From a virus (Duplodnaviria > Heunggongvirae > Uroviricota > Caudoviricetes): a DNA stretch of 39,953 nt. A program made the position numbers and the translations under genes. Below, piece after piece: positions 1,776-25,058 of the stretch. A model generated the notes under the pieces. The model saw nothing but the letters and a program-made list of their open reading frames with translations, was not told the DNA's origin and did no database searches. The stretch lies in the IMG/VR virus record IMGVR_UViG_2563366923_000006. One strand, 5' to 3'. How positions within the stretch are numbered: position 1 is the stretch's first letter; the number at the start of each line of letters is the position of its first letter.

Positions 1776-2600
1776 TCAGGCGGTGAAAGTACCAATAAAG
1801 GTTTCTACTTTGCTGTCTTTGAATTTTTCAACAAGCAGATCACGAAATTCGTTAGCCATTTCTTCCTGCACTGCTTCCAGCTGAATAATGCGCAGAACCA
1901 GTACAGGGCGATCACCAGTGATAATGCTGAGTCGTAATTTAAATGGACGTTCTTTCAGGCCTTCAAACGGAACGCATTTAAATTCAAATGCCACTGGCAT
2001 AATGTCTTTGGTCTTCGCTTCGACAGACTCCATCAGGGAGCGTTTGCCGCTGAAGTCATTGTCTTCAAAATCAGCAGTCTGGTTCGCTTCAATTGTGATT
2101 TTACGGACCGCCGCAGCCGCTTTTGTTGCCTGAATAGCGTCACCATTAGCATCAAAGCCCACAAGGTAGTCGGCCCAGTCTTCAATCCATTCTGCCAGTG
2201 ACTTCTGGGAGTTACGCTCGCCGTTAACAGACAACAGGGCAGAGAACGGTGCTGTCTTTTTCAGTTTGAGAGTGGCGGTGTTATCTGCGTGACCTGGTTC
2301 ATCAATAGTACCCAGGTTAAGCACACTGACTGCTCGCATATTATCGGCATCGATAAAGCAGCGGGTGCCTTCATCTGCAAGATCTTTAGAATAACGGGTA
2401 AAGTCATCGATGCTGGCAGTGGAAAGCGCACCACGGAAACGGAAGCGATTTAAATTAAATTTTTCCAGATCATGAATGCGGAAATTCTCAGGCAATGCCA
2501 CAGCATCGGCACCAATCTTACTGATAATTTCATTAACACCCTGAGCAGAAATAAGGGCATGGATTTGATTAATTGCGGTTGCGTCTAAGTTCTGAGACAT
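1776..2600 (-). CDS. YfdQ-like (DUF2303) phage protein
   Basis: 274 aa, same length and character as the CPS-53 prophage protein YfdQ (recalled); GAGGA SD 8 nt upstream. Confidence 0.7.
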
Positions 2601-2665: not shown

Positions 2666-3028
2666 TTAATGACCTGCTGCGCGGAGTTTTCCGTCAGGCT
2701 CACCGGCAAGAGTCAGTAATTGTCCCTGGTCTTCCTGCAGAATAGTCAGGCGACCACCGCGATTGACATACATCGGCGTTTCGGTGGTGTCTTCTTCGGA
2801 AATTTTCCCGCGGTTAGTCGGGCGAACATATGAGAGTTTGTGTTTGATTTTCACACGGTTCTCATCAAACGGTTCGATTTCCAGGTTGAGCGAGACCTTA
2901 CCTTTGGTTTTCGTGTTCATCACACCGGAAGCGACTTCACTGAGAACTGCGCCGATTTTGGTTTCAAATACGCCGCCGTCCAGCTCCCCGATAAATGCCT
3001 GCACATCAGTACTGCGTTCGCTAGCCAT
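2666..3028 (-). CDS. Hypothetical phage early protein (start at MASERS, not the longer tracked ORF)
   Basis: GAGGAG SD 6 nt upstream of ATG at 3028; protein-like composition. Confidence 0.6.
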   Translation of the reverse strand: MASERSTDVQAFIGELDGGVFETKIGAVLSEVASGVMNTKTKGKVSLNLEIEPFDENRVKIKHKLSYVRPTNRGKISEEDTTETPMYVNRGGRLTILQEDQGQLLTLAGEPDGKLRAAGH

Positions 3029-3075
3029 TTGCTGCTCCTCATCATATCGACCCTGCAAGGTCGGTTGGTTTCTCC

Positions 3076-3208
3076 ACAAAACAGAGAAGAACACCTGCGG
3101 TGACTGCCGCCCGGATGGATTGGGTTATGAGCCCGTCGTCCGGTGATGCTCTTCTCTGTTTTGTAAAAAGGACGGTACCAGCCGGAAGCAAGGGTACAAG
3201 CTGGTACC
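3076..3208. other. Structured noncoding region: perfect 15-bp inverted repeat (3076-3090 / 3150-3164) plus 9-bp stem (3174-3182 / 3200-3208)
   Basis: Inverted repeats read directly; only junk-like ORFs across 3029-3464. Confidence 0.4.
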
Positions 3209-3464
3209 GCCAAGACTACACACAGCATAAAGTTGTGGTGCCGGGTGCCTCCCGGTGCCTGGCGAAGGTTGCACACCAGGCGGGTGGGTATCCACAGAAG
3301 GTCGACTGTCAGCCTCAACCTTAACCCGCGTGCGCTGAGCCGCATTCACCACAACGCTAAGGATTCTCTCTGGTTGAAAATACTTAGCTGTTATGTGCCT
3401 GTCTTTTCACCACTTCAGGCTCGGTGGTATCCTTTTAAGCCCGTATACATAAAAGGAAAATCAA

Positions 3465-3710
3465 ATGACTTTTGATGAAAAAGAACTTGATAATGCAATT
3501 AATAAAATCATCGTAACGTCGCTCTTTTCCTGTCTCAGCGACACTCAGCAGAAACAGTTCTACGAATCGGCTTTCAACATGATCGAGCGTTGTTGTTTCT
3601 GCGATGCCGACGAGTTACCTGAAAAAATCAGGAAACAGTTGGCTGATGCTCTTCGAGTGCGACTTTCTGACCAATTTTCTGAAATGTGCTCTCCGAATTT
3701 GGACAAATAG
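3465..3710 (+). CDS. Hypothetical small protein
   Basis: 81 aa; AAGGAAAA upstream of ATG; overlaps the 3' end of a convergent minus-strand ORF. Confidence 0.35.
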   Translation: MTFDEKELDNAINKIIVTSLFSCLSDTQQKQFYESAFNMIERCCFCDADELPEKIRKQLADALRVRLSDQFSEMCSPNLDK

Positions 3711-3903
3711 AAAAAGGCCATTTCCATTCAGGGTCTGATGGAAATACTTCAGCCTGTTCCAAAGCACGGCGTAAAGAGAATACACCTCCAGCCATAATCT
3801 GATGTTTCCCATTGGTCCAGCTATCGCCGCTCTGATCTACAGGAGCGGCTATGTCGTATGACCAAACGACTTCACCACTATTGTTTAAAATCTGGACTTT
3901 CAT
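3628..3903 (-). CDS. Hypothetical small protein, second gene of early-left operon
   Basis: 91 aa; 8 bp downstream of the zinc-finger gene; GGAGG upstream. Confidence 0.4.
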   Translation of the reverse strand: MKVQILNNSGEVVWSYDIAAPVDQSGDSWTNGKHQIMAGGVFSLRRALEQAEVFPSDPEWKWPFSICPNSESTFQKIGQKVALEEHQPTVS

Positions 3904-3911
3904 TTTGTTCT

Positions 3912-4115
3912 TTAACCTCCAGATTTCCGCGCATCTAAAGGCGCATTCTCATTTGGTGTGAACTGAATAGTTGTGCTGATATTGATTAATGCCCCGACAC
4001 ACAAGACTACGCACTCAGAGCAGATAGCAACTTCATCTTTTCCGCCTTTGGCGATGATTTTTTTTGCCTGCAGCTCGTTTGCGCCACAAAACGAGCATGT
4101 GAAATAACGGTTCAT
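3912..4115 (-). CDS. Small ClpX-type zinc-finger protein (C4), first gene after the PL-like promoter
   Basis: CSFCG...CSEC motif closely matches the ClpX N-terminal zinc-binding domain signature (recalled). Confidence 0.5.
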   Translation of the reverse strand: MNRYFTCSFCGANELQAKKIIAKGGKDEVAICSECVVLCVGALINISTTIQFTPNENAPLDARKSGG

Positions 4116-4299
4116 TTGCGCTCTCTTACACATAGTATTTAACGAATCATCCGGTCATTCATACGCCACCGGCGGCTACTTCGTGTTCGTCCTGACTGTT
4201 CGTTTTTGACATTTACTGACCGCTTACGACACATGCACCATGCACCGTGTTGCAACTAGATTTTGTTGTAATCCTGTAGTTGGTCTGGAACAAAAGATA

Positions 4300-4399: not shown

Positions 4400-5092
4400 T
4401 TAATTATGTCTCTTAAGGGTTTGCGACTGACTGATTAAGACCTTTCCAAAGACCATGAATCGGTGTTCGTTTTCGCTAGTAATTCCCCATTCACGGTAAA
4501 TCTGGTTATCAGAAATCACCAGCAGTTTGTCAGGAATCATTTGAAGTCTTTTAACGTATATTTTGTCATCAAAACCAAAGACATATATACCATCACCATC
4601 AAACTGATTGATGCTGACATCAACGAAGATGAGATCTCCTGGCTCAATGGTTGGACACATACTGTCCCCACGAACGTTGATAACTTTGATGTGATTGGCT
4701 GGTCGTCCGCCGAACATTGATACAGCATTATCAGTTCTGTATTCGATGGCATGAATCACATCAATGACATCACCGCCCTGGATAAGGCCATTTCCCGCAC
4801 TGGCACTGATATCCAACATTTCAATACGGAACACATCCTTCACCTGCGCAACATCCTCATCATTACTGTTTTTATATACAGTATTACTTTTGAGGGCAGA
4901 GGTAAAGAGATCAGCAATATCAACACCTAAGCTCTTGGCAATATTACTCAGTGTTTGTTCGGTAAATTGTTTCTGCTTACCCGTTTCTAAGCGCGAGATG
5001 TTCGCCGCATCTACTCCTATTGCTTCAGCGAGATCGGCGATTTTCATGTTCTTCGCTTGGCGAAGTTGTCTGACTCGTTTTCCTATGTTCAT
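4400..5092 (-). CDS. cI: CI-like phage repressor (XRE HTH + S24 LexA-like peptidase domain)
   Basis: N-terminal HTH; C-terminal S24-type domain; divergent from a Cro-like gene. Confidence 0.85.
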   Translation of the reverse strand: MNIGKRVRQLRQAKNMKIADLAEAIGVDAANISRLETGKQKQFTEQTLSNIAKSLGVDIADLFTSALKSNTVYKNSNDEDVAQVKDVFRIEMLDISASAGNGLIQGGDVIDVIHAIEYRTDNAVSMFGGRPANHIKVINVRGDSMCPTIEPGDLIFVDVSINQFDGDGIYVFGFDDKIYVKRLQMIPDKLLVISDNQIYREWGITSENEHRFMVFGKVLISQSQTLKRHN

Positions 5093-5189
5093 GCGTTTAT
5101 TACATTTCTTTATTGCGTGATAAGCAAATCAACTTGCGCAAAATACTTGCGTGAAATAACATGCATAACGCGCAATATTTGGAGGATAT
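5093..5189. promoter_or_regulatory. OR-like operator/promoter region between repressor and cro-like genes
   Basis: Repeated TTGCG(T/C) and CGCAA half-sites at 5113-5127, 5134-5141, 5148-5155, 5168-5175. Confidence 0.55.
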
Positions 5190-5450
5190 ATGCAATCACC
5201 ATTACGAAATGTGCGTAAGGCGCATGGTTTCACTTTGCAGCATGTTGCTGCGGGTGTTCAAGTCAATCCAGCGACGTTGAGTCGTATTGAGAGGCTGGAG
5301 CAGATTCCATCTATCGAGCTTGCAGAACGTTTAGCCAATTTTTTTAAGGGTGAAATCAGCGAAATGCAGATTCTTTATCCGGCACGTTTTCAATCTAGCC
5401 AAAACCAGAATGGGTTTAAACCACAGGAACAGGAGGTGAACCGTGGGTAA
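5190..5450 (+). CDS. Cro-like HTH regulator
   Basis: 86 aa XRE-type HTH; divergent from repressor; GGAGG SD. Confidence 0.7.
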   Translation: MQSPLRNVRKAHGFTLQHVAAGVQVNPATLSRIERLEQIPSIELAERLANFFKGEISEMQILYPARFQSSQNQNGFKPQEQEVNRG

Positions 5451-5994
5451 GCATCACTGGAAAATAGAAAAACAGCCTGAGTGGTACGTGAAAGCTGTCA
5501 GAAAAACTATCGCGGCGTTGCCGGGTGGTTACGCTGAAGCGGCTGATTGGCTCGATGTAACAGAAAACGCTTTATTCAACCGCCTTCGTGCAGATGGCGA
5601 TCAGATTTTCCCGCTGGGATGGGCAATGGTTTTACAGCGTGCTGGTGGCACTCACTTCATTGCTGATGCTGTGGCGCAGTCTGCAAATGGCGTATTTGTG
5701 TCTCTTCCTGACATCGAGGATGTGGACAACGCCGATATCAACCAACGCCTGCTGGAGGTCATTGAACAGATCGGCAGTTATTCAAAACAGATTCGTTCAG
5801 CAATTGAAGACGGTGTAGTGGAACCGCATGAGAAGACAGCAATTAACGATGAGCTGTACCTCTCAATTTCGAAGCTGCAGGAGCATGCAGCACTGGTCTA
5901 CAAAATCTTTTGCGTTTCAGAAAGTAGTGACGCCCGCGAGTGTGCAGCTCCGGGCGCCGTGGCGTGTCGTGACTGTGGAGAAACTAACGCATGA
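5443..5994 (+). CDS. CII-like phage regulatory protein (tentative), GTG start
   Basis: Position after cro; AGGAGG 6 nt upstream of GTG; family resemblance is from memory. Confidence 0.5.
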
Positions 5995-9313: not shown

Positions 9314-10309
9314 GTGACCGTGAGAGCACTACTGACCCCTGAAATAGCCCCGCGTATGGGGATTGTATTGTTCAGACCAGGTTCAGAGCTGATGCCCCTG
9401 TTTATGCAGGGGCGTGTCCTGCTGGAGCCTGAGCCGGAACGTTATTCATCTTTCGCCAGTGGTGCCGTTCCGGCGGCATCACAACCGCTGGCGGATGATC
9501 CTGCCGTTAGGGCCGTGTTCCGCAATGAGGCAGTGATCCGTCGTGCTGGTGGCGTGGAATGTCTTGAAAGCTGGTTACTTCGTGAAAAAGGCTGCCAGTG
9601 GCCTCATTCCGACTGGCACAGCGAGAACATGACCACAATGCGACACGCGCCGGGCGCGATCCGTCTGTGCTGGCACTGCGATAACCAGCTGCGCGATCAG
9701 TTCACGGAACGGCTGGAATCAATGGCAACGGATAACTGTGCCCGCTGGGTGTTGTCTGTAGTCCGTCGGGATCTCGGTTTTGATGATAACCATGCCGTGA
9801 CAATGCCGGAACTGTGCTGGTGGTTGATTCGTAATGACCTGGCGGATGCCTTACCGGAAAGTGCAGCCCGTAAGGCACTGAGATTACCGAAGCCTGTTGT
9901 GCCGTCTGTCACCCGGGAAAGTGACCTTGTGCCTTCGGTTCCTGCCACCAGCATCATCCAGGATAAGGCGAAAAAGGTGCTGGCGCTGAAAGTGGATCCG
10001 GAGTCGCCGGAGTCTTTTATGTTACGCCCAAAACGCCGCCGCTGGGTTAATGAAAAGTACACGCGCTGGGTTAAGACACAGCCGTGTGCATGTTGTGGAA
10101 AGCCTGCTGATGATCCCCACCACCTGATAGGCCACGGTCAGGGTGGAATGGGTACAAAAGCGCATGACCTCTTTGTGTTGCCTTTGTGCAGAAAGCATCA
10201 CGACGAGCTGCATGCGGATACCGTGGCATTTGAAGAGAAGTATGGCTCTCAGCTGGAGCTGATATTTCGTTTTATCGATCGTGCGCTGGCAATTGGCGTA
10301 TTGGCGTAA
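9314..10309 (+). CDS. DUF968-like phage protein with C-terminal HNH-like Cys/His motifs
   Basis: CACCGK...HHLIGHG...LCRKHHDELH at C-terminus; GTG start. Confidence 0.65.
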   Translation: MTVRALLTPEIAPRMGIVLFRPGSELMPLFMQGRVLLEPEPERYSSFASGAVPAASQPLADDPAVRAVFRNEAVIRRAGGVECLESWLLREKGCQWPHSDWHSENMTTMRHAPGAIRLCWHCDNQLRDQFTERLESMATDNCARWVLSVVRRDLGFDDNHAVTMPELCWWLIRNDLADALPESAARKALRLPKPVVPSVTRESDLVPSVPATSIIQDKAKKVLALKVDPESPESFMLRPKRRRWVNEKYTRWVKTQPCACCGKPADDPHHLIGHGQGGMGTKAHDLFVLPLCRKHHDELHADTVAFEEKYGSQLELIFRFIDRALAIGVLA

Positions 10310-10322
10310 GTGGAGAACGAGC

Positions 10323-11075
10323 ATGAACCTTGAAGCCTTACCAAAATATTACTCCCCAAAATCTCCAAAATTGAGCGATGACGCACCGGCGACAGGCTCA
10401 GGTGGTTTAACGATTACGGATGTGATGGCTGCGCAGGGGATGGTGCAGTCGAAAGCACCGCTTGGGTTTGCCTTATTCCTGGCAAAAGTTGGTGTTCAGG
10501 ATCCTCAATTTGCGATTGAAGGTCTGCTCAATTACGCGATGGCACTGGATAACCCGACATTGAACAAATTGAGTGAAGAAACCCGGTTACAGATCATCCC
10601 TTACCTTGTGAATTTTGCCTTTGCTGATTATTCCAGGTCTGCGGCAAGTAAGGCTCGCTGTGAGCATTGTGCTGGTACTGGATTTCATAATGTATTGCGC
10701 GAAGTGGTGAAACACTCCAGAAGCGGGGAATCTGTTATCAAGGAAGAGTGGGTGAAGGAACTATGTCAGCATTGTCATGGTAAGGGAGAAGTCAGCACAG
10801 CGTGCAGAGGGTGTAAGGGTAAAGGTATTGTCCTGGATGAAAAAAGGACCCGGCTTCATGGCACGCCTGTTTATAAGATTTGTGGGCGTTGCAATGGAAA
10901 CCGGTTTAGCCGTTTACCAACCACACTGGCGCGGCATCATGTCCAGAAGCTGGTACCAGACCTGACGGATTATCAGTGGTACAAAGGATATGCAGATGTC
11001 ATTGATAAACTGGTTACAAAGTGCTGGCAGGAAGAAGCATATGCAGAGATACAATTGAGAAAGGTGACAAGATAA
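10323..11075 (+). CDS. Putative late-gene antiterminator (Q-like) with four CxxCxGxG zinc-finger repeats
   Basis: Position just upstream of the late promoter; CEHCAGTG, CQHCHGKG, CRGCKGKG, CGRCNGNR repeats. Confidence 0.55.
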   Translation: MNLEALPKYYSPKSPKLSDDAPATGSGGLTITDVMAAQGMVQSKAPLGFALFLAKVGVQDPQFAIEGLLNYAMALDNPTLNKLSEETRLQIIPYLVNFAFADYSRSAASKARCEHCAGTGFHNVLREVVKHSRSGESVIKEEWVKELCQHCHGKGEVSTACRGCKGKGIVLDEKRTRLHGTPVYKICGRCNGNRFSRLPTTLARHHVQKLVPDLTDYQWYKGYADVIDKLVTKCWQEEAYAEIQLRKVTR

Positions 11076-11106
11076 ATGGTTTTCGCCGAAGATGACGACA
11101 TGATGC

Positions 11107-11135
11107 TTGCATTTTTCAAAAAATATGGATAAGAT
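11107..11135 (+). promoter_or_regulatory. Late promoter candidate (TTGCAT-N17-TAAGAT)
   Basis: Near-consensus -35/-10 with 17-bp spacer immediately after the Q-like gene. Confidence 0.5.
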
Positions 11136-11182
11136 TTTCCCAACGATGGGCTTTGTATGTCTACCGTTGATAAGATTTAGGA

Positions 11183-11206
11183 ACCCGCCACTGAGCGGGT
11201 TTTTTG
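11183..11206 (+). terminator. Rho-independent terminator downstream of late promoter (tR'-like)
   Basis: ACCCGC-CACTGA-GCGGGT hairpin followed by TTTTTT. Confidence 0.65.
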
Positions 11207-11327
11207 TACCTGTAAACTTGGTGCAGTACAGTAAACACGCTGGTGGTCGTGAATACTGACTTTTTATCTTGCTGGATTTTTAGACAAGAGTTATTGGTAT
11301 GTCATGTTAACCAGAAGGGAAAAAGAC

Positions 11328-11531
11328 ATGCTAAAACAGCAAGATATGACAGAAACCGCCGCCGCAGTCCTTCATTTCTTACCTGCTGACAAGTGGGTAA
11401 CGCCACGCATGATGACGAGAACTACCGGAGTAAGCGAAGCCCGGTGCCAGTTAATACTGACTCAGTTAGTTCTGGCGGGTCTGGCGAAGGATAACGGCGG
11501 GTACGGGAATAAATTCAGACGCTGCCAGTAA
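11328..11531 (+). CDS. Hypothetical small protein
   Basis: AAGGGA upstream of internal ATG; 67 aa. Confidence 0.4.
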   Translation: MLKQQDMTETAAAVLHFLPADKWVTPRMMTRTTGVSEARCQLILTQLVLAGLAKDNGGYGNKFRRCQ

Positions 11532-11681
11532 TGGCGGTTTCCTGCTGTGAAAATGGGCGGCTGGTGGGTGTTGGTAGCACCTGCCAGCCATTCGCTCATG
11601 CTTACTGGTCACAAGCGAACCACGGCCCACTGCTTTAGCGCAAAAGCAGAGTGAGCCTACCAGAGTTACGCTTACTGATCC

Positions 11682-23578: not shown

Positions 23579-25058
23579 CACCATTCCGTCGAATACGCTG
23601 GTTCCGCTGTTTTATGCGGAAATGGATAACTCGGCGGCGAATACTGCACAGGACAGCGGAGCATCGCTGCTGATTGGTCATGCCAATAACGGTGCAGAGA
23701 TTGTTGCCAACAGTCTGGTGCTGATGCCGTCGGCAGACTATGCACGCCAGATTTGTGGTGCGGGAAGTCAGCTGGCGCGTATGGTCGAGGCTTATCGCCA
23801 GACCGACCCGTTTGGTGAGCTGTATGTGATTGCCGTTCCTGAATCCACGGGCGCGGCGGCAACGGTTACGCTGACGGTGACCGGGGCGGCAACCGAAACC
23901 GGCACGGTTAATGTTTATGTGGGACGTACCCGCGTACAGGCACCGGTGACCAACGGCGATAACGTTGCGACGATTGCCAGCAGTATCAAAGATGCCATCA
24001 ATGCCGTTCCGGCCCTGCCGTTTACGGCTTCATCTTCGGCAGGCGTGGTCACACTGACCGCGCGTCATAAGGGGCTTTGCGGGAATGAAATTCCTGTCAG
24101 CCTCAATTACTACGGGTTTGGTGGGGGCGAAGTGCTGCCAGCGGGCGTACAGATTGCCGTGGCGACGGGTACCGCCGGAACGGGCGCTCCGGTTCTCACC
24201 GGCGCGGTGGCTGCAATGGCGGATGAGCCGTTTGATTATATCGGCCTGCCGTTCAACGACACGGCCTCCGTTAACACGCTGGTGACCGAGATGAACGATA
24301 CCAGCGGTCGCTGGAGCTATGCGCGTCAGCTGTATGGTCATGTGTATACGGCAAAGATCGGCACGCTGTCAGAACTGGTGACCGCAGGTGACCAGTTTAA
24401 CCAGCAGCACATTACCCTGGCGGGATACGAAAAAGACACTCAGACGCCAGCCGACGAGCTGGCGGCAAGCCGTACCGCCCGCGCAGCGGTGTTTATTCGC
24501 AACGATCCGGCACGTCCCACGCAGACCGGTGAGCTGGTGGGTATGCTGCCTGCGCCGAAGGGGAAACGGTTCACGATGACCGAGCAACAGACCCTGCTGT
24601 CTCATGGCGTGGCAACGGCGTATGTCGAAAGTGGGGTACTGCGCATTCAGCGTGATGTCACCACGTACAGGAAAAACGCTTACGGGGTTGCGGATAACAG
24701 CTACCTCGACAGTGAGACGCTGCATACCAGCGCGTATGTACTGCGCAAACTGAAATCCGTCATTACCAGTAAGTACGGGCGTCACAAGCTTGCCAGTGAC
24801 GGTACCCGCTTTGGTCCCGGTCAGGCGATTGTCACCCCGGCGGTGATCAAAGGGGAACTGCTGGCAACCTACCGTCAGCTCGAGCGTGCGGGGATCGTGG
24901 AAAACTACGAACTGTTTAAGCAGTACCTGGTTGTGGAGCGTGATGCCAGCGATCCGAACCGCCTGAACACGCTGTTCCCGCCTGACTATGTTAACCAGTT
25001 GCGTGTCTTTGCCGTGGTTAACCAGTTCCGTCTTCAGTATTCAGAGGAGTCTGCATAA
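23562..25058 (+). CDS. Tail sheath protein (Mu gpL-like)
   Basis: 498 aa; followed by tube and chaperone with frameshift. Confidence 0.85.
   Translation: MTISFNTIPSNTLVPLFYAEMDNSAANTAQDSGASLLIGHANNGAEIVANSLVLMPSADYARQICGAGSQLARMVEAYRQTDPFGELYVIAVPESTGAAATVTLTVTGAATETGTVNVYVGRTRVQAPVTNGDNVATIASSIKDAINAVPALPFTASSSAGVVTLTARHKGLCGNEIPVSLNYYGFGGGEVLPAGVQIAVATGTAGTGAPVLTGAVAAMADEPFDYIGLPFNDTASVNTLVTEMNDTSGRWSYARQLYGHVYTAKIGTLSELVTAGDQFNQQHITLAGYEKDTQTPADELAASRTARAAVFIRNDPARPTQTGELVGMLPAPKGKRFTMTEQQTLLSHGVATAYVESGVLRIQRDVTTYRKNAYGVADNSYLDSETLHTSAYVLRKLKSVITSKYGRHKLASDGTRFGPGQAIVTPAVIKGELLATYRQLERAGIVENYELFKQYLVVERDASDPNRLNTLFPPDYVNQLRVFAVVNQFRLQYSEESA

Follow-up and report, generated by a model that had tools for sequence, protein, structure and literature searches.

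DicF, a small RNA (sRNA) cut from the transcript of the dicB operon, a repressor-controlled early operon in the lambdoid Qin prophage, obtains its 3' end by termination or by RNase III, and a duplex of about 25 bp is a classical substrate of this enzyme. In lambda, the hairpins of the N-leader and sib are early-left elements that control downstream expression via RNase III, and the put element of phage HK022 modifies RNA polymerase. A dual-role model applies to IsrK of Gifsy-1, which is a short terminated sRNA and likewise the 5' part of the longer mRNA that it controls.

The described RNAs most closely related to the one treated here are STnc100 and PasD. Canonical STnc100 copies usually form genes by themselves, many with a promoter and terminator of their own, and are found in the late region of lambdoid or Stx prophages, behind Q and stx and close to lysis genes. 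An overlap with canonical STnc100 is shown by EcOnc27/sRNA103 of E. coli O157:H7, an Hfq-binding RNA that changes the transcript levels of fimZ and espA when overexpressed (PMC12711010). Eleven STnc100 copies are transcribed in strain EDL933 with mostly low ribosome coverage, one of them confirmed by Northern blotting (PMC5331693). The RNAs PasD1 and PasD2 of EPEC (Pearl Mizrahi 2021; Zhu, Shabalina & Storz 2026) are stabilised by Hfq and have many RIL-seq targets (PMC8550237); they have been described as structural relatives of STnc100 (bioRxiv 10.64898/2026.05.13.724894) and show that the scaffold can carry different seeds.

The DNA considered here, hereafter the window, is a stretch of 39,953 nucleotides (IMG/VR record IMGVR_UViG_2563366923_000006) representing an SfV-like lambdoid prophage. 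Judged by sequence and predicted fold, its positions 3029-3464 encode a minus-strand structured RNA, a divergent and unannotated relative of the STnc100/PasD phage small RNAs. The STnc100/PasD prophage RNA family itself is already known; what is new is an early-operon variant scoring below the Rfam threshold. In common with canonical STnc100, the window element has helix P1, an AAU segment, helix P2 with its UNAGC loop, helix P4, the invariant P5 hairpin CCGGG-AGGCA-CCCGG and the closing strand CACCAC. Both are prophage-borne and consist of a structured domain, a linker and a U-tailed terminator. In contrast to the canonical copy of phage 933W, which scores 207.7 bits against the Rfam model, the window copy reaches 43.4 bits. 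It is located in the early-left operon, between the immunity region and yfdP, instead of the late region, carries a hairpin (H1) where canonical STnc100 has its promoter, and is followed by an extra hairpin (HL) downstream.

The likeness to PasD, prophage-encoded like the window element, is by published description, and the neighbours of PasD are Q and LpxR of late regions, whereas the window element is early-left. DicF, with its 53 nt, is devoid of a structured 5' domain, while the window RNA has a structured core; in phage phiES15, a kil-type division inhibitor follows the RNA, a counterpart to the order of DicF and dicB. The window RNA and IsrK resemble each other neither in sequence nor in structure, and the IsrK homologue of phages ST64B and sal3 occupies a different place, beyond the immunity region. 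Whereas the promoter is immediately followed by the two simple stem-loops of put in HK022, HL is branched at its tip and some 1.1 kb distant from the putative pL. Phage P1 has a core unit devoid of a terminator in its ban operon, which is under C1 control; tRNA genes lie on one side of the unit and tciA on the other. The core of P1-like phages and of several chromosomal copies likewise stands directly before a ribosome-binding site and an open reading frame (ORF), without a terminator. This arrangement of the P1-like copies fits a role in cis better than an sRNA reading.

Locus, distribution and family assignment

Positions 3029-3464 are 98% identical to positions 24618-25053 of phage SfV, where the counterpart is an unannotated gap between orf32 and orf33, and equally so in SfII, SfIV and many E. 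coli phages. About half of the complete E. coli genomes (2,786 of 5,426) match the stretch, and 1,814 of the 5,426 carry at least 80% of it, the full-length copies being 95-100% identical. Salmonella phage ST64B and the serotype-converting Shigella phages SfV, SfII and SfIV carry the element, too. On the minus strand, RNA modules account for about 360 of the 436 bases. The literature on transcripts of phages ST64B and SfV holds nothing on this RNA. As a source of transcript data, K-12 was discarded, its CPS-53 prophage retaining only the last 57 nt before yfdP.

The gene order around the element is the same in SfV. Leftward, the minus-strand yfdP-like gene (2666-3028; its product matches phrog_204, RefSeq YfdP and SfV orf32) and the yfdQ-like DUF2303 gene (1776-2600, minus strand) follow. 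To the right of the element lies an 81-aa ORF on the plus strand (3465-3710; full-length phrog_3311 match), which is divergent from the RNA locus and whose short leader with the Shine-Dalgarno sequence AAGGA (3431..3464, plus strand) is outside of it. Beyond this ORF, orf33 (3628-3903), the gene of a ClpX-zinc-finger protein (3912-4133) and the cI-type repressor gene (4400-5092), which is succeeded by a strong terminator (4380-4363), occupy the minus strand, and cro (5190-5450), a cII-like gene (5443-5994) and Q (10281-11075) the plus strand. Mosaic junctions between phages occur at about 3213 and about 3400.

The identification rests on an Rfam scan evaluated by E-value and on a covariance model (R1) built here. 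The only meaningful Rfam match was STnc100 (RF02076; 3385..3162, minus strand; E = 6.7e-8), aligned untruncated over model positions 1-206 of 206 with the terminator hairpin included. A covariance search against Rfam had been proposed in a first-pass annotation of this DNA, and it did return a family, at 43.4 bits and thus under the cut-off; at the gathering threshold, which is 47 bits for STnc100, the scan gave no match in the window. Among early-operon relatives, P1-like L087 (41.3 bits), phiES15 (40.6), sal3 (37.5) and ST64B (35.1) are all sub-threshold, and this range of 35-41 bits is separated from that of canonical copies (72-208), the lower part of which is occupied by the tandem copies of Superficieibacter (72-92 bits).

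Relatives were gathered from phage records, from IMG/VR contigs using the motif GGTGAATGCGGCTNAGCGCACGCGGG, from species-representative genomes using ACCGGGARGNNCCCGGCACC, and from phage 933W, which has a canonical copy behind stx2B. In an alignment of 57 sequences including the window, GGUGAAU and ACCGGGAGGCACCCGGCACC are invariant and enclose a variable interior, the motifs GGUGAAU ... CACCGGGAGGCACCCGGCACC, which close P1, being invariant columns. RNAalifold recovered P1, P2, P2a and P5 with compensatory pairs, and these helices with P4 added constitute R1. A search with this model gave 93 copies in 88 loci, the window element scoring 84.7 bits; no second core copy was found by R1 in the window, including the late region after Q (10281-11075). 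Altogether, the family spans about 50 enterobacterial species and several phage groups, P1-like phages included, and tandem arrays of up to six cores exist, the latter on a Pantoea plasmid. A tRNA-like end was dismissed as a family feature, CCA directly following P1 in only 9 of 73 copies, all of one Kosakonia-type lineage.

Fold of the core and architecture of the transcript

The STnc100-type core (about 127 nt; 3232..3355, minus strand) is delimited by the Rfam match, model R1 and covariation, and is pseudoknotted. Its family fold comprises P1 (3355..3347 with 3240..3232), the AAU segment (3346..3344), P2 (3343..3328), P2a (3327..3324 with 3285..3282), the 7-bp pseudoknot P3 (AAGGUUG 3322..3316 with CAACCUU 3271..3265), P4 (3281..3274 with 3264..3257) and P5 (3255..3241). 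In the alignment of the 93 hits, pairing extends to 94.8% of cells (77.6% in shuffles), both partners have changed in 21 of 27 pairs, and the covariation score amounts to 0.443 against 0.138 in shuffles (0 of 500 reach it) and 0.03-0.10 with partners slid, values to be read with the caveat that this alignment was fitted to the covariance model. In P2 of the window, GCGGC/GC-CGC replaces the canonical CCCCC/GGGG with full compensation.

The pseudoknot joins the P4 loop to the nucleotides immediately following P2, by a pairing whose sequence is lineage-specific (AAGGUUG/CAACCUU in the window, UGGUUAU/AUAACCA in P1, CUGGU/ACCAG in 933W). The offsets of the two strands vary, which precludes counting by alignment column, and the pairing was therefore assessed by a per-sequence permutation test; over 49 distinct strand sequences, own strands form on average 5.46 Watson-Crick bp versus 3.56 for mismatched partners (0 of 2000 permutations). 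Every helix and the pseudoknot are intact in the window copy, in which AAGGUUG has two possible partners, CAACCUU of the P4 loop or the nearby UCGACCUU. The core is a genuine, elaborately folded RNA. Family-wide, its junctions and loops (GGUGAAU, the UNAGC loop, CACCGGGAGGCACCCGGCACC) are most conserved, peripheral helices and pseudoknot strands vary freely, and the presumed seed is most variable. This combination of a variable seed with conserved junctions and loops is unusual for base-pairing sRNAs and counts against an sRNA reading.

Upstream of the core lies the block AUACCACCGAGCCUGAAGUGGUGAAAAGACAGGCACAUAAC (3390..3430, minus strand); despite differing flanks, its conservation amounts to 82-94% in Salmonella phage 118970_sal3 and Cronobacter phage phiES15. 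It contains a possible GCCUG/CAGGC hairpin followed by the single-stranded ACAUAAC segment, likely a 5' processing region. The sequence GGCACAYAAC precedes H1 in every subtype and adjoins a tRNA 3' end in P1-like contigs. Hairpin H1 (GCUAAG ... CUUAGC; 3356..3388, minus strand), obtained by inverted-repeat search and minimum free energy folding, abuts the core. All early-operon subtypes have a hairpin at this position, the stem of which (6-14 bp) differs in sequence, for example AUGAAGCGCAUUUC/GGAAUGCGCUUCAU versus AUGAAGCACACUCC/GGAGUGUGCUUCAU. As the helix pairs in each subtype with different sequence, it must be transcribed.

In many canonical copies, only 0-3 nt lie between the core and the -10 box of a sigma-70 promoter, and a consensus scan of the stretch gave no sigma-70 promoter of the RNA's own. 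The candidate AAGACA-17-TATTTT (8 of 12 matches) was rejected, since its start would fall inside H1 and it is absent from sister variants. Just left of the cI terminator, the motif CGCAAAATAnTnnCTTGCGT, also found at pR (5134-5160), occurs in a segment containing the promoter-like TTGCGT-17-TATCTT. On account of this shared motif and promoter-like site, we infer pL at about 4317-4289, firing leftward; operator-like repeats are common to the pR and pL regions. With no own promoter found, the window RNA is most simply regarded as being transcribed from pL and cut out, and its expression in the lysogen is uncertain. The plus-strand ORF 3465-3710 is located between the putative pL and the RNA in opposite orientation, which was counted against the reading as a pL transcript.

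Downstream of the core, a single-stranded linker, UUUAUGCUGUGUGUAGUCU (3213..3231, minus strand; unpaired in the folds), represents the candidate seed. Its part GCUGUGUG(U/A)AG(U/A)CUU is retained in ST64B, sal3 and phiES15 despite unrelated terminator hairpins, so that GCUGUGUGUAGUCUU is conserved beside three unrelated terminators; other linkers substitute in L058 and mEp460-type variants. Apart from the linker itself, no complement within 3 mismatches was found in the phage, and a duplex scan for targets in the phage genome gave no outlier at any translation start. The best non-self duplexes, inside a structural gene or antisense to cII, were treated as chance.

The linker is followed by an intrinsic terminator (3165..3212, minus strand) with a 13-bp GC-rich stem, a 17-nt loop and C plus UUUUU (3170 and 3169..3165). 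The fold of this segment amounts to -26.3 kcal/mol (z = -3.95). It was overlooked by a consensus scan only because its 17-nt loop exceeds the 8-nt limit of that scan. A weak DicF match of the hairpin (RF00039; 19.4 bits versus a cut-off of 48, E 0.19) does not make the RNA a DicF member, being under 48 bits and confined to the terminator hairpin, with the DicF seed not conserved. Under a loose script rule, a hairpin with U-run follows 53 of the 93 cores within 22-147 nt (median 47); about 40 of the 53 lie within roughly 60 nt and resemble true terminators, while a few correspond to the P2 hairpin of the next core.

The terminator is adjoined by HL (100 nt; 3070..3169, minus strand), a hairpin with a stem of about 25 bp and a branched tip. 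Its DNA arms, 3076-3100 and 3140-3164, are 25 nt long and 84% complementary, and its 5' arm takes in the U-tract of the terminator. With -62.8 kcal/mol, HL is far more stable than its dinucleotide shuffles (-39.7 +/- 3.9; z = -6.0, 0 of 200 as good). The stem persists in an alignment of 18 HL variants, which shows only one compensatory change, of G:C to A:U, and several one-sided exchanges between G:U, G:C and A:U. HL is homologous to the H1 hairpin of P1, with AAGAGCAU...ACGGGYUCAUAWCCCAAUC in common; the GGG-YUCAUAW-CCC hairpin therein bears only a superficial likeness to a T-arm. It ends 42 nt before the yfdP start codon, and the remainder of the yfdP-like 5' UTR (3026..3069, minus strand) comprises a hairpin at 3063..3048, GAGGAG at 3040..3035 and the ATG at 3028..3026. 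Phage mEp460 and Stx2c phages share only 3029-3213 with the window, terminator and HL being kept and the core reduced to its final ~16 nt, and HL stays with the terminator also where the downstream gene is yfdR instead of yfdP. HL is followed by UUGUGGAGAAAC, which resembles the start of the core (UUGUGGUGAAUG), and P1 has a second hairpin of HL type followed by AUUGUGGUGAAUGC. HL may hence be the stump of a second tandem unit; with 9 of 14 matches and the same order of hairpin and GUGGUGAAUGC in P1, a core stump in HL plus UUGUGGAGAAAC is suggestive, not demonstrable.

These modules contain both repeats that the first-pass annotation had pointed out. The perfect 15-bp inverted repeat (3076-3090/3150-3164) is present as the core of the longer HL arms, and the 9-bp stem (3174-3182/3200-3208) belongs to the terminator, where 10 bp are perfect (3173-3182/3200-3209) and 13 bp are formed upon folding. 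Real as both are, they had been taken as one feature without a strand, and are now assigned to two modules of a minus-strand transcript. The position just upstream of a minus-strand gene start is borne out by the GAGGAG and ATG of the yfdP-like gene (3040..3035 and 3028). RNA folding, suggested there as a check, gave z-scores against dinucleotide shuffles of -6.0 for the segment of the long hairpin, -3.95 for that of the terminator and -3.7 for the 231-nt RNA. A regulatory RNA, one of the functions considered at the time, is supported by the STnc100/PasD relationship on the minus strand and a fold with compensatory changes. The proposed attenuator holds in so far as the 9-bp stem is an intrinsic terminator in the early-left operon, from the anatomy of which a limit to read-through is deduced.

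Proposed mode of action and rival explanations

By the anatomy of its relatives, which it matches, and by the linker conserved beside unrelated terminators, the window RNA is probably a processed Hfq-type sRNA, the terminator of which is also a barrier within the early-left operon. A structured RNA, some 225-270 nt in length, would be transcribed leftward from pL within this operon, without a promoter of its own, and its 5' end would be cut in the AU-rich ACAUAAC segment just upstream of H1. Most transcripts would end at the terminator, with the 3' end near 3165, releasing an Hfq-type sRNA in which the linker would serve as base-pairing seed and the core as stable scaffold. As an intrinsic terminator inside the early-left operon, the same element would reduce the transcription that reaches yfdP-yfdQ-yfdR and, further on in SfV, xis and int. 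Read-through transcripts would fold HL and thereby absorb the U-tract. HL is a plausible RNase III substrate, the cleavage of which might free the sRNA from the mRNA that follows, in the manner of DicF within the dicB operon; this role of RNase III at HL is purely inferential.

A protein-coding role of the stretch is hardly credible. The high GC content of the stretch accounts for its stop-free ORFs of 74-141 aa. Hypothetical coding sequences (CDSs) are placed here in phage records, and ORF 3100-3324 (plus strand) matches phrog_3651 (E 7e-49), so that hypothetical proteins, phrog_3651 or ORFs of 74-80 aa might be proposed as products. PGAP, however, calls a CDS only as a 'frameshifted' pseudogene, and relative to ST64B, 118970_sal3 and phiES15 (about 78% identity), each candidate ORF contains 2-8 frameshifting indels, with substitutions flat over codon positions and without third-position excess. 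Moreover, the open frames vary between subtypes, the candidate ORFs have no Pfam match, and the nucleotide changes keep RNA pairing instead. The phrog_3651 match and the recorded CDSs are therefore best read as mis-calls propagated from conserved DNA. The initial impression of a stretch with no protein-like ORF was correct in substance, and the small gene that might have been found by homology has come down to a family match with unconserved reading frames. An action of the inverted repeats as DNA, be it as recombination site, as suggested initially, as protein operator or as cruciform, is equally far-fetched. The long repeat is perfect over 15 bp, and mosaic junctions lie at the two positions given above; such joints at conserved RNA modules are, however, predicted by homologous recombination alone. 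Furthermore, the arms are separated by 39-59 bp of conserved and itself structured sequence, and no integrase, invertase or other recombinase gene is adjacent. The stem pairing survives the few changes seen, which are G:U-tolerant or compensatory and fit RNA, and the HL hairpin type recurs upstream of cores in P1 and P1-like phages as an RNA module. The suggestion of a recombination site hence finds no support.

A cis-acting leader is a more serious contender, if still rather unlikely. Here, the core would be a riboswitch-like, protein-binding or antitermination/processing module of phage early operons that responds to some signal by setting read-through of the adjacent terminator or translation of the next gene. 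Invariant junctions and loops with a free periphery are the pattern of ligand- or protein-binding RNAs, the P1-like and several chromosomal cores directly precede a ribosome-binding site and ORF, the alternative partners of AAGGUUG (CAACCUU or UCGACCUU) are a possible switch, and no N-like antiterminator was seen among the genes checked in these phages, although the terminator blocks the early-left operon. On the other hand, the leader lacks a known ligand or protein partner, a linker of 20-45 nt separates core and terminator without an evident competing antiterminator, and no overlap of terminator and antiterminator was seen. In addition, many relatives stand alone with their own promoter and terminator, tandem arrays occur, and relatives bind Hfq and have targets in trans. 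That the locus is an evolutionary relic, a decaying STnc100-type gene in a recombination-prone module junction and functionless beyond its terminator, is improbable. The sub-threshold Rfam score, the negative promoter scan, the loss of all but the core's end in mEp460 and Stx2c-type phages, and the likeness of HL plus UUGUGGAGAAAC to a second-unit stump would agree with decay. However, all helices and the pseudoknot of the window are intact, the subtype is kept with compensatory changes across phages of E. coli, Shigella, Salmonella and Cronobacter and P1-like plasmid prophages, and near-identical full-length copies reside in the 1,814 E. coli genomes mentioned above. The processed Hfq-type sRNA thus remains the preferred reading.

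Meaning for early-left gene control

If the favoured sRNA model holds, an RNA regulator and a terminator would stand together at the entry to the early-left genes of recombination and accessory functions, which bears on the timing of xis and int. Somewhat more speculatively, the core might be an autonomous pseudoknotted module for ligand or protein binding, RNA processing or antitermination, an idea that we hold only tentatively. In enterobacterial phages and plasmids, it may then occur in three formats, namely as stand-alone genes and arrays of up to six, as ban-operon leaders beside genes and tRNAs, and as operon-embedded early-left units. If so, the window element would act in cis on early-left read-through or on the fate of the mRNA, and exchangeable linkers and terminators would provide copies with trans-acting targets.

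Since its Rfam score falls just under the threshold, the element has been left unannotated or miscalled as hypothetical or frameshifted proteins, and its recognition would remove spurious ORF families such as phrog_3651. Its abundance, the place it holds at the entrance to the early-left genes and its strongly conserved pseudoknotted core are what make it of interest. For the STnc100/PasD group as a whole, the comparison suggests a shared, elaborate, covarying pseudoknotted fold, which reaches P1-like phages and about 50 enterobacterial species.

Genes and reading frames around the RNA

In the window, the minus-strand STnc100-type RNA is overlapped on the opposite strand by an ORF at 3100-3324 (+) with a match to phrog_3651. 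Likewise, in E. coli CE0021a (locus L249, 1514-1824), a pseudogene annotated by PGAP as a 'frameshifted hypothetical protein' spans the RNA, and both look like ORFs mis-called over a conserved RNA gene. Beside the RNA and divergent from it lies an 81-aa ORF (3465-3710, +), which carries a good Shine-Dalgarno sequence, is matched by phrog_3311 over its full length and shares an 83-nt overlap with the 3' end of orf33 (3628-3903, -). This ORF is called in phage records, is absent from the PGAP annotation and would be antisense to the transcript of the early-left promoter pL. The first gene downstream of the inferred pL (window ~4317-4289, firing leftward) is found at 3912-4133 (-); its 73-aa product contains a C4 zinc finger of the ClpX type (PF06689, E 1.4e-10), and SfV lacks a counterpart of the gene at that position. 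A Q antiterminator (PF03589) is encoded within window 10281-11680, and the ~600-bp gap following it is without an STnc100-type core according to the Rfam scan and the family covariance model R1. The Q antiterminator family is the usual neighbour of PasD/STnc100.

Variation of the RNA in other genomes

The pseudoknotted core is also present, unannotated, in the ban operon of phage P1 (NC_005856; locus L002, 2660-3128; ~69.7-70.2 kb of the record) between upl and tciA. There, the core has an H1 hairpin upstream, and a second H1-like hairpin, with AUUGUGGUGAAUGC after it, is antisense to the plp gene. The core unit of P1-like IMG/VR contigs is placed directly between tRNA genes. Cores can additionally be arranged in tandem (L205, 946-1992; L184, 3112-4489; L200, 6366-7005; L237; L198), with six copies in ~1 kb and a second stretch of five on one plasmid of Pantoea sp. 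App145 and three in Superficieibacter; some arrayed cores have their own terminators, others abut directly.

In Salmonella phage 118970_sal3 (L006, ~2790-2990), H1 is enlarged to ~120 nt and includes two hairpins that resemble T-arms, CUGG-UUCGAUU-CCAG and GUCCG-UUCAAUU-CGGAC, both with a T-loop of consensus sequence. Kosakonia-type copies (L150, L183, L187, L190, L206, L213 and others) carry CCA directly after the 3' strand of the closing stem, e.g., CACCACACG-CCA, which recalls the acceptor end of a tRNA. As a general feature of the family, this CCA was rejected, being confined to one lineage (9 of 73 copies). Most of the core is lost in mEp460 (L005, 2501-2700) and the Stx2c/Stx2a phages, where all that survives is the terminator, the long hairpin and the final ~16 nt of the core (CACCGGUCACCACAAC), and plus-strand ORFs take the place of the remainder; compared with the window, the mosaic joint falls at ~3213.

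Further RNA regulators in related phages

In phage 933W (L008, 2501-2760), the canonical STnc100 lies downstream of stx2B and scores 207.7 bits. Directly behind it, the other strand shows matches to sRNAs of the AsxR/AgvB type, and together these constitute a dense convergent sRNA pair. In ST64B (L003, 409-597) and sal3 (L006, 48-124), matches to IsrK and C4 antisense RNA exceed the Rfam cut-offs and lie across the immunity region from the STnc100-type RNA. Several RNA regulators are therefore present in these prophages.
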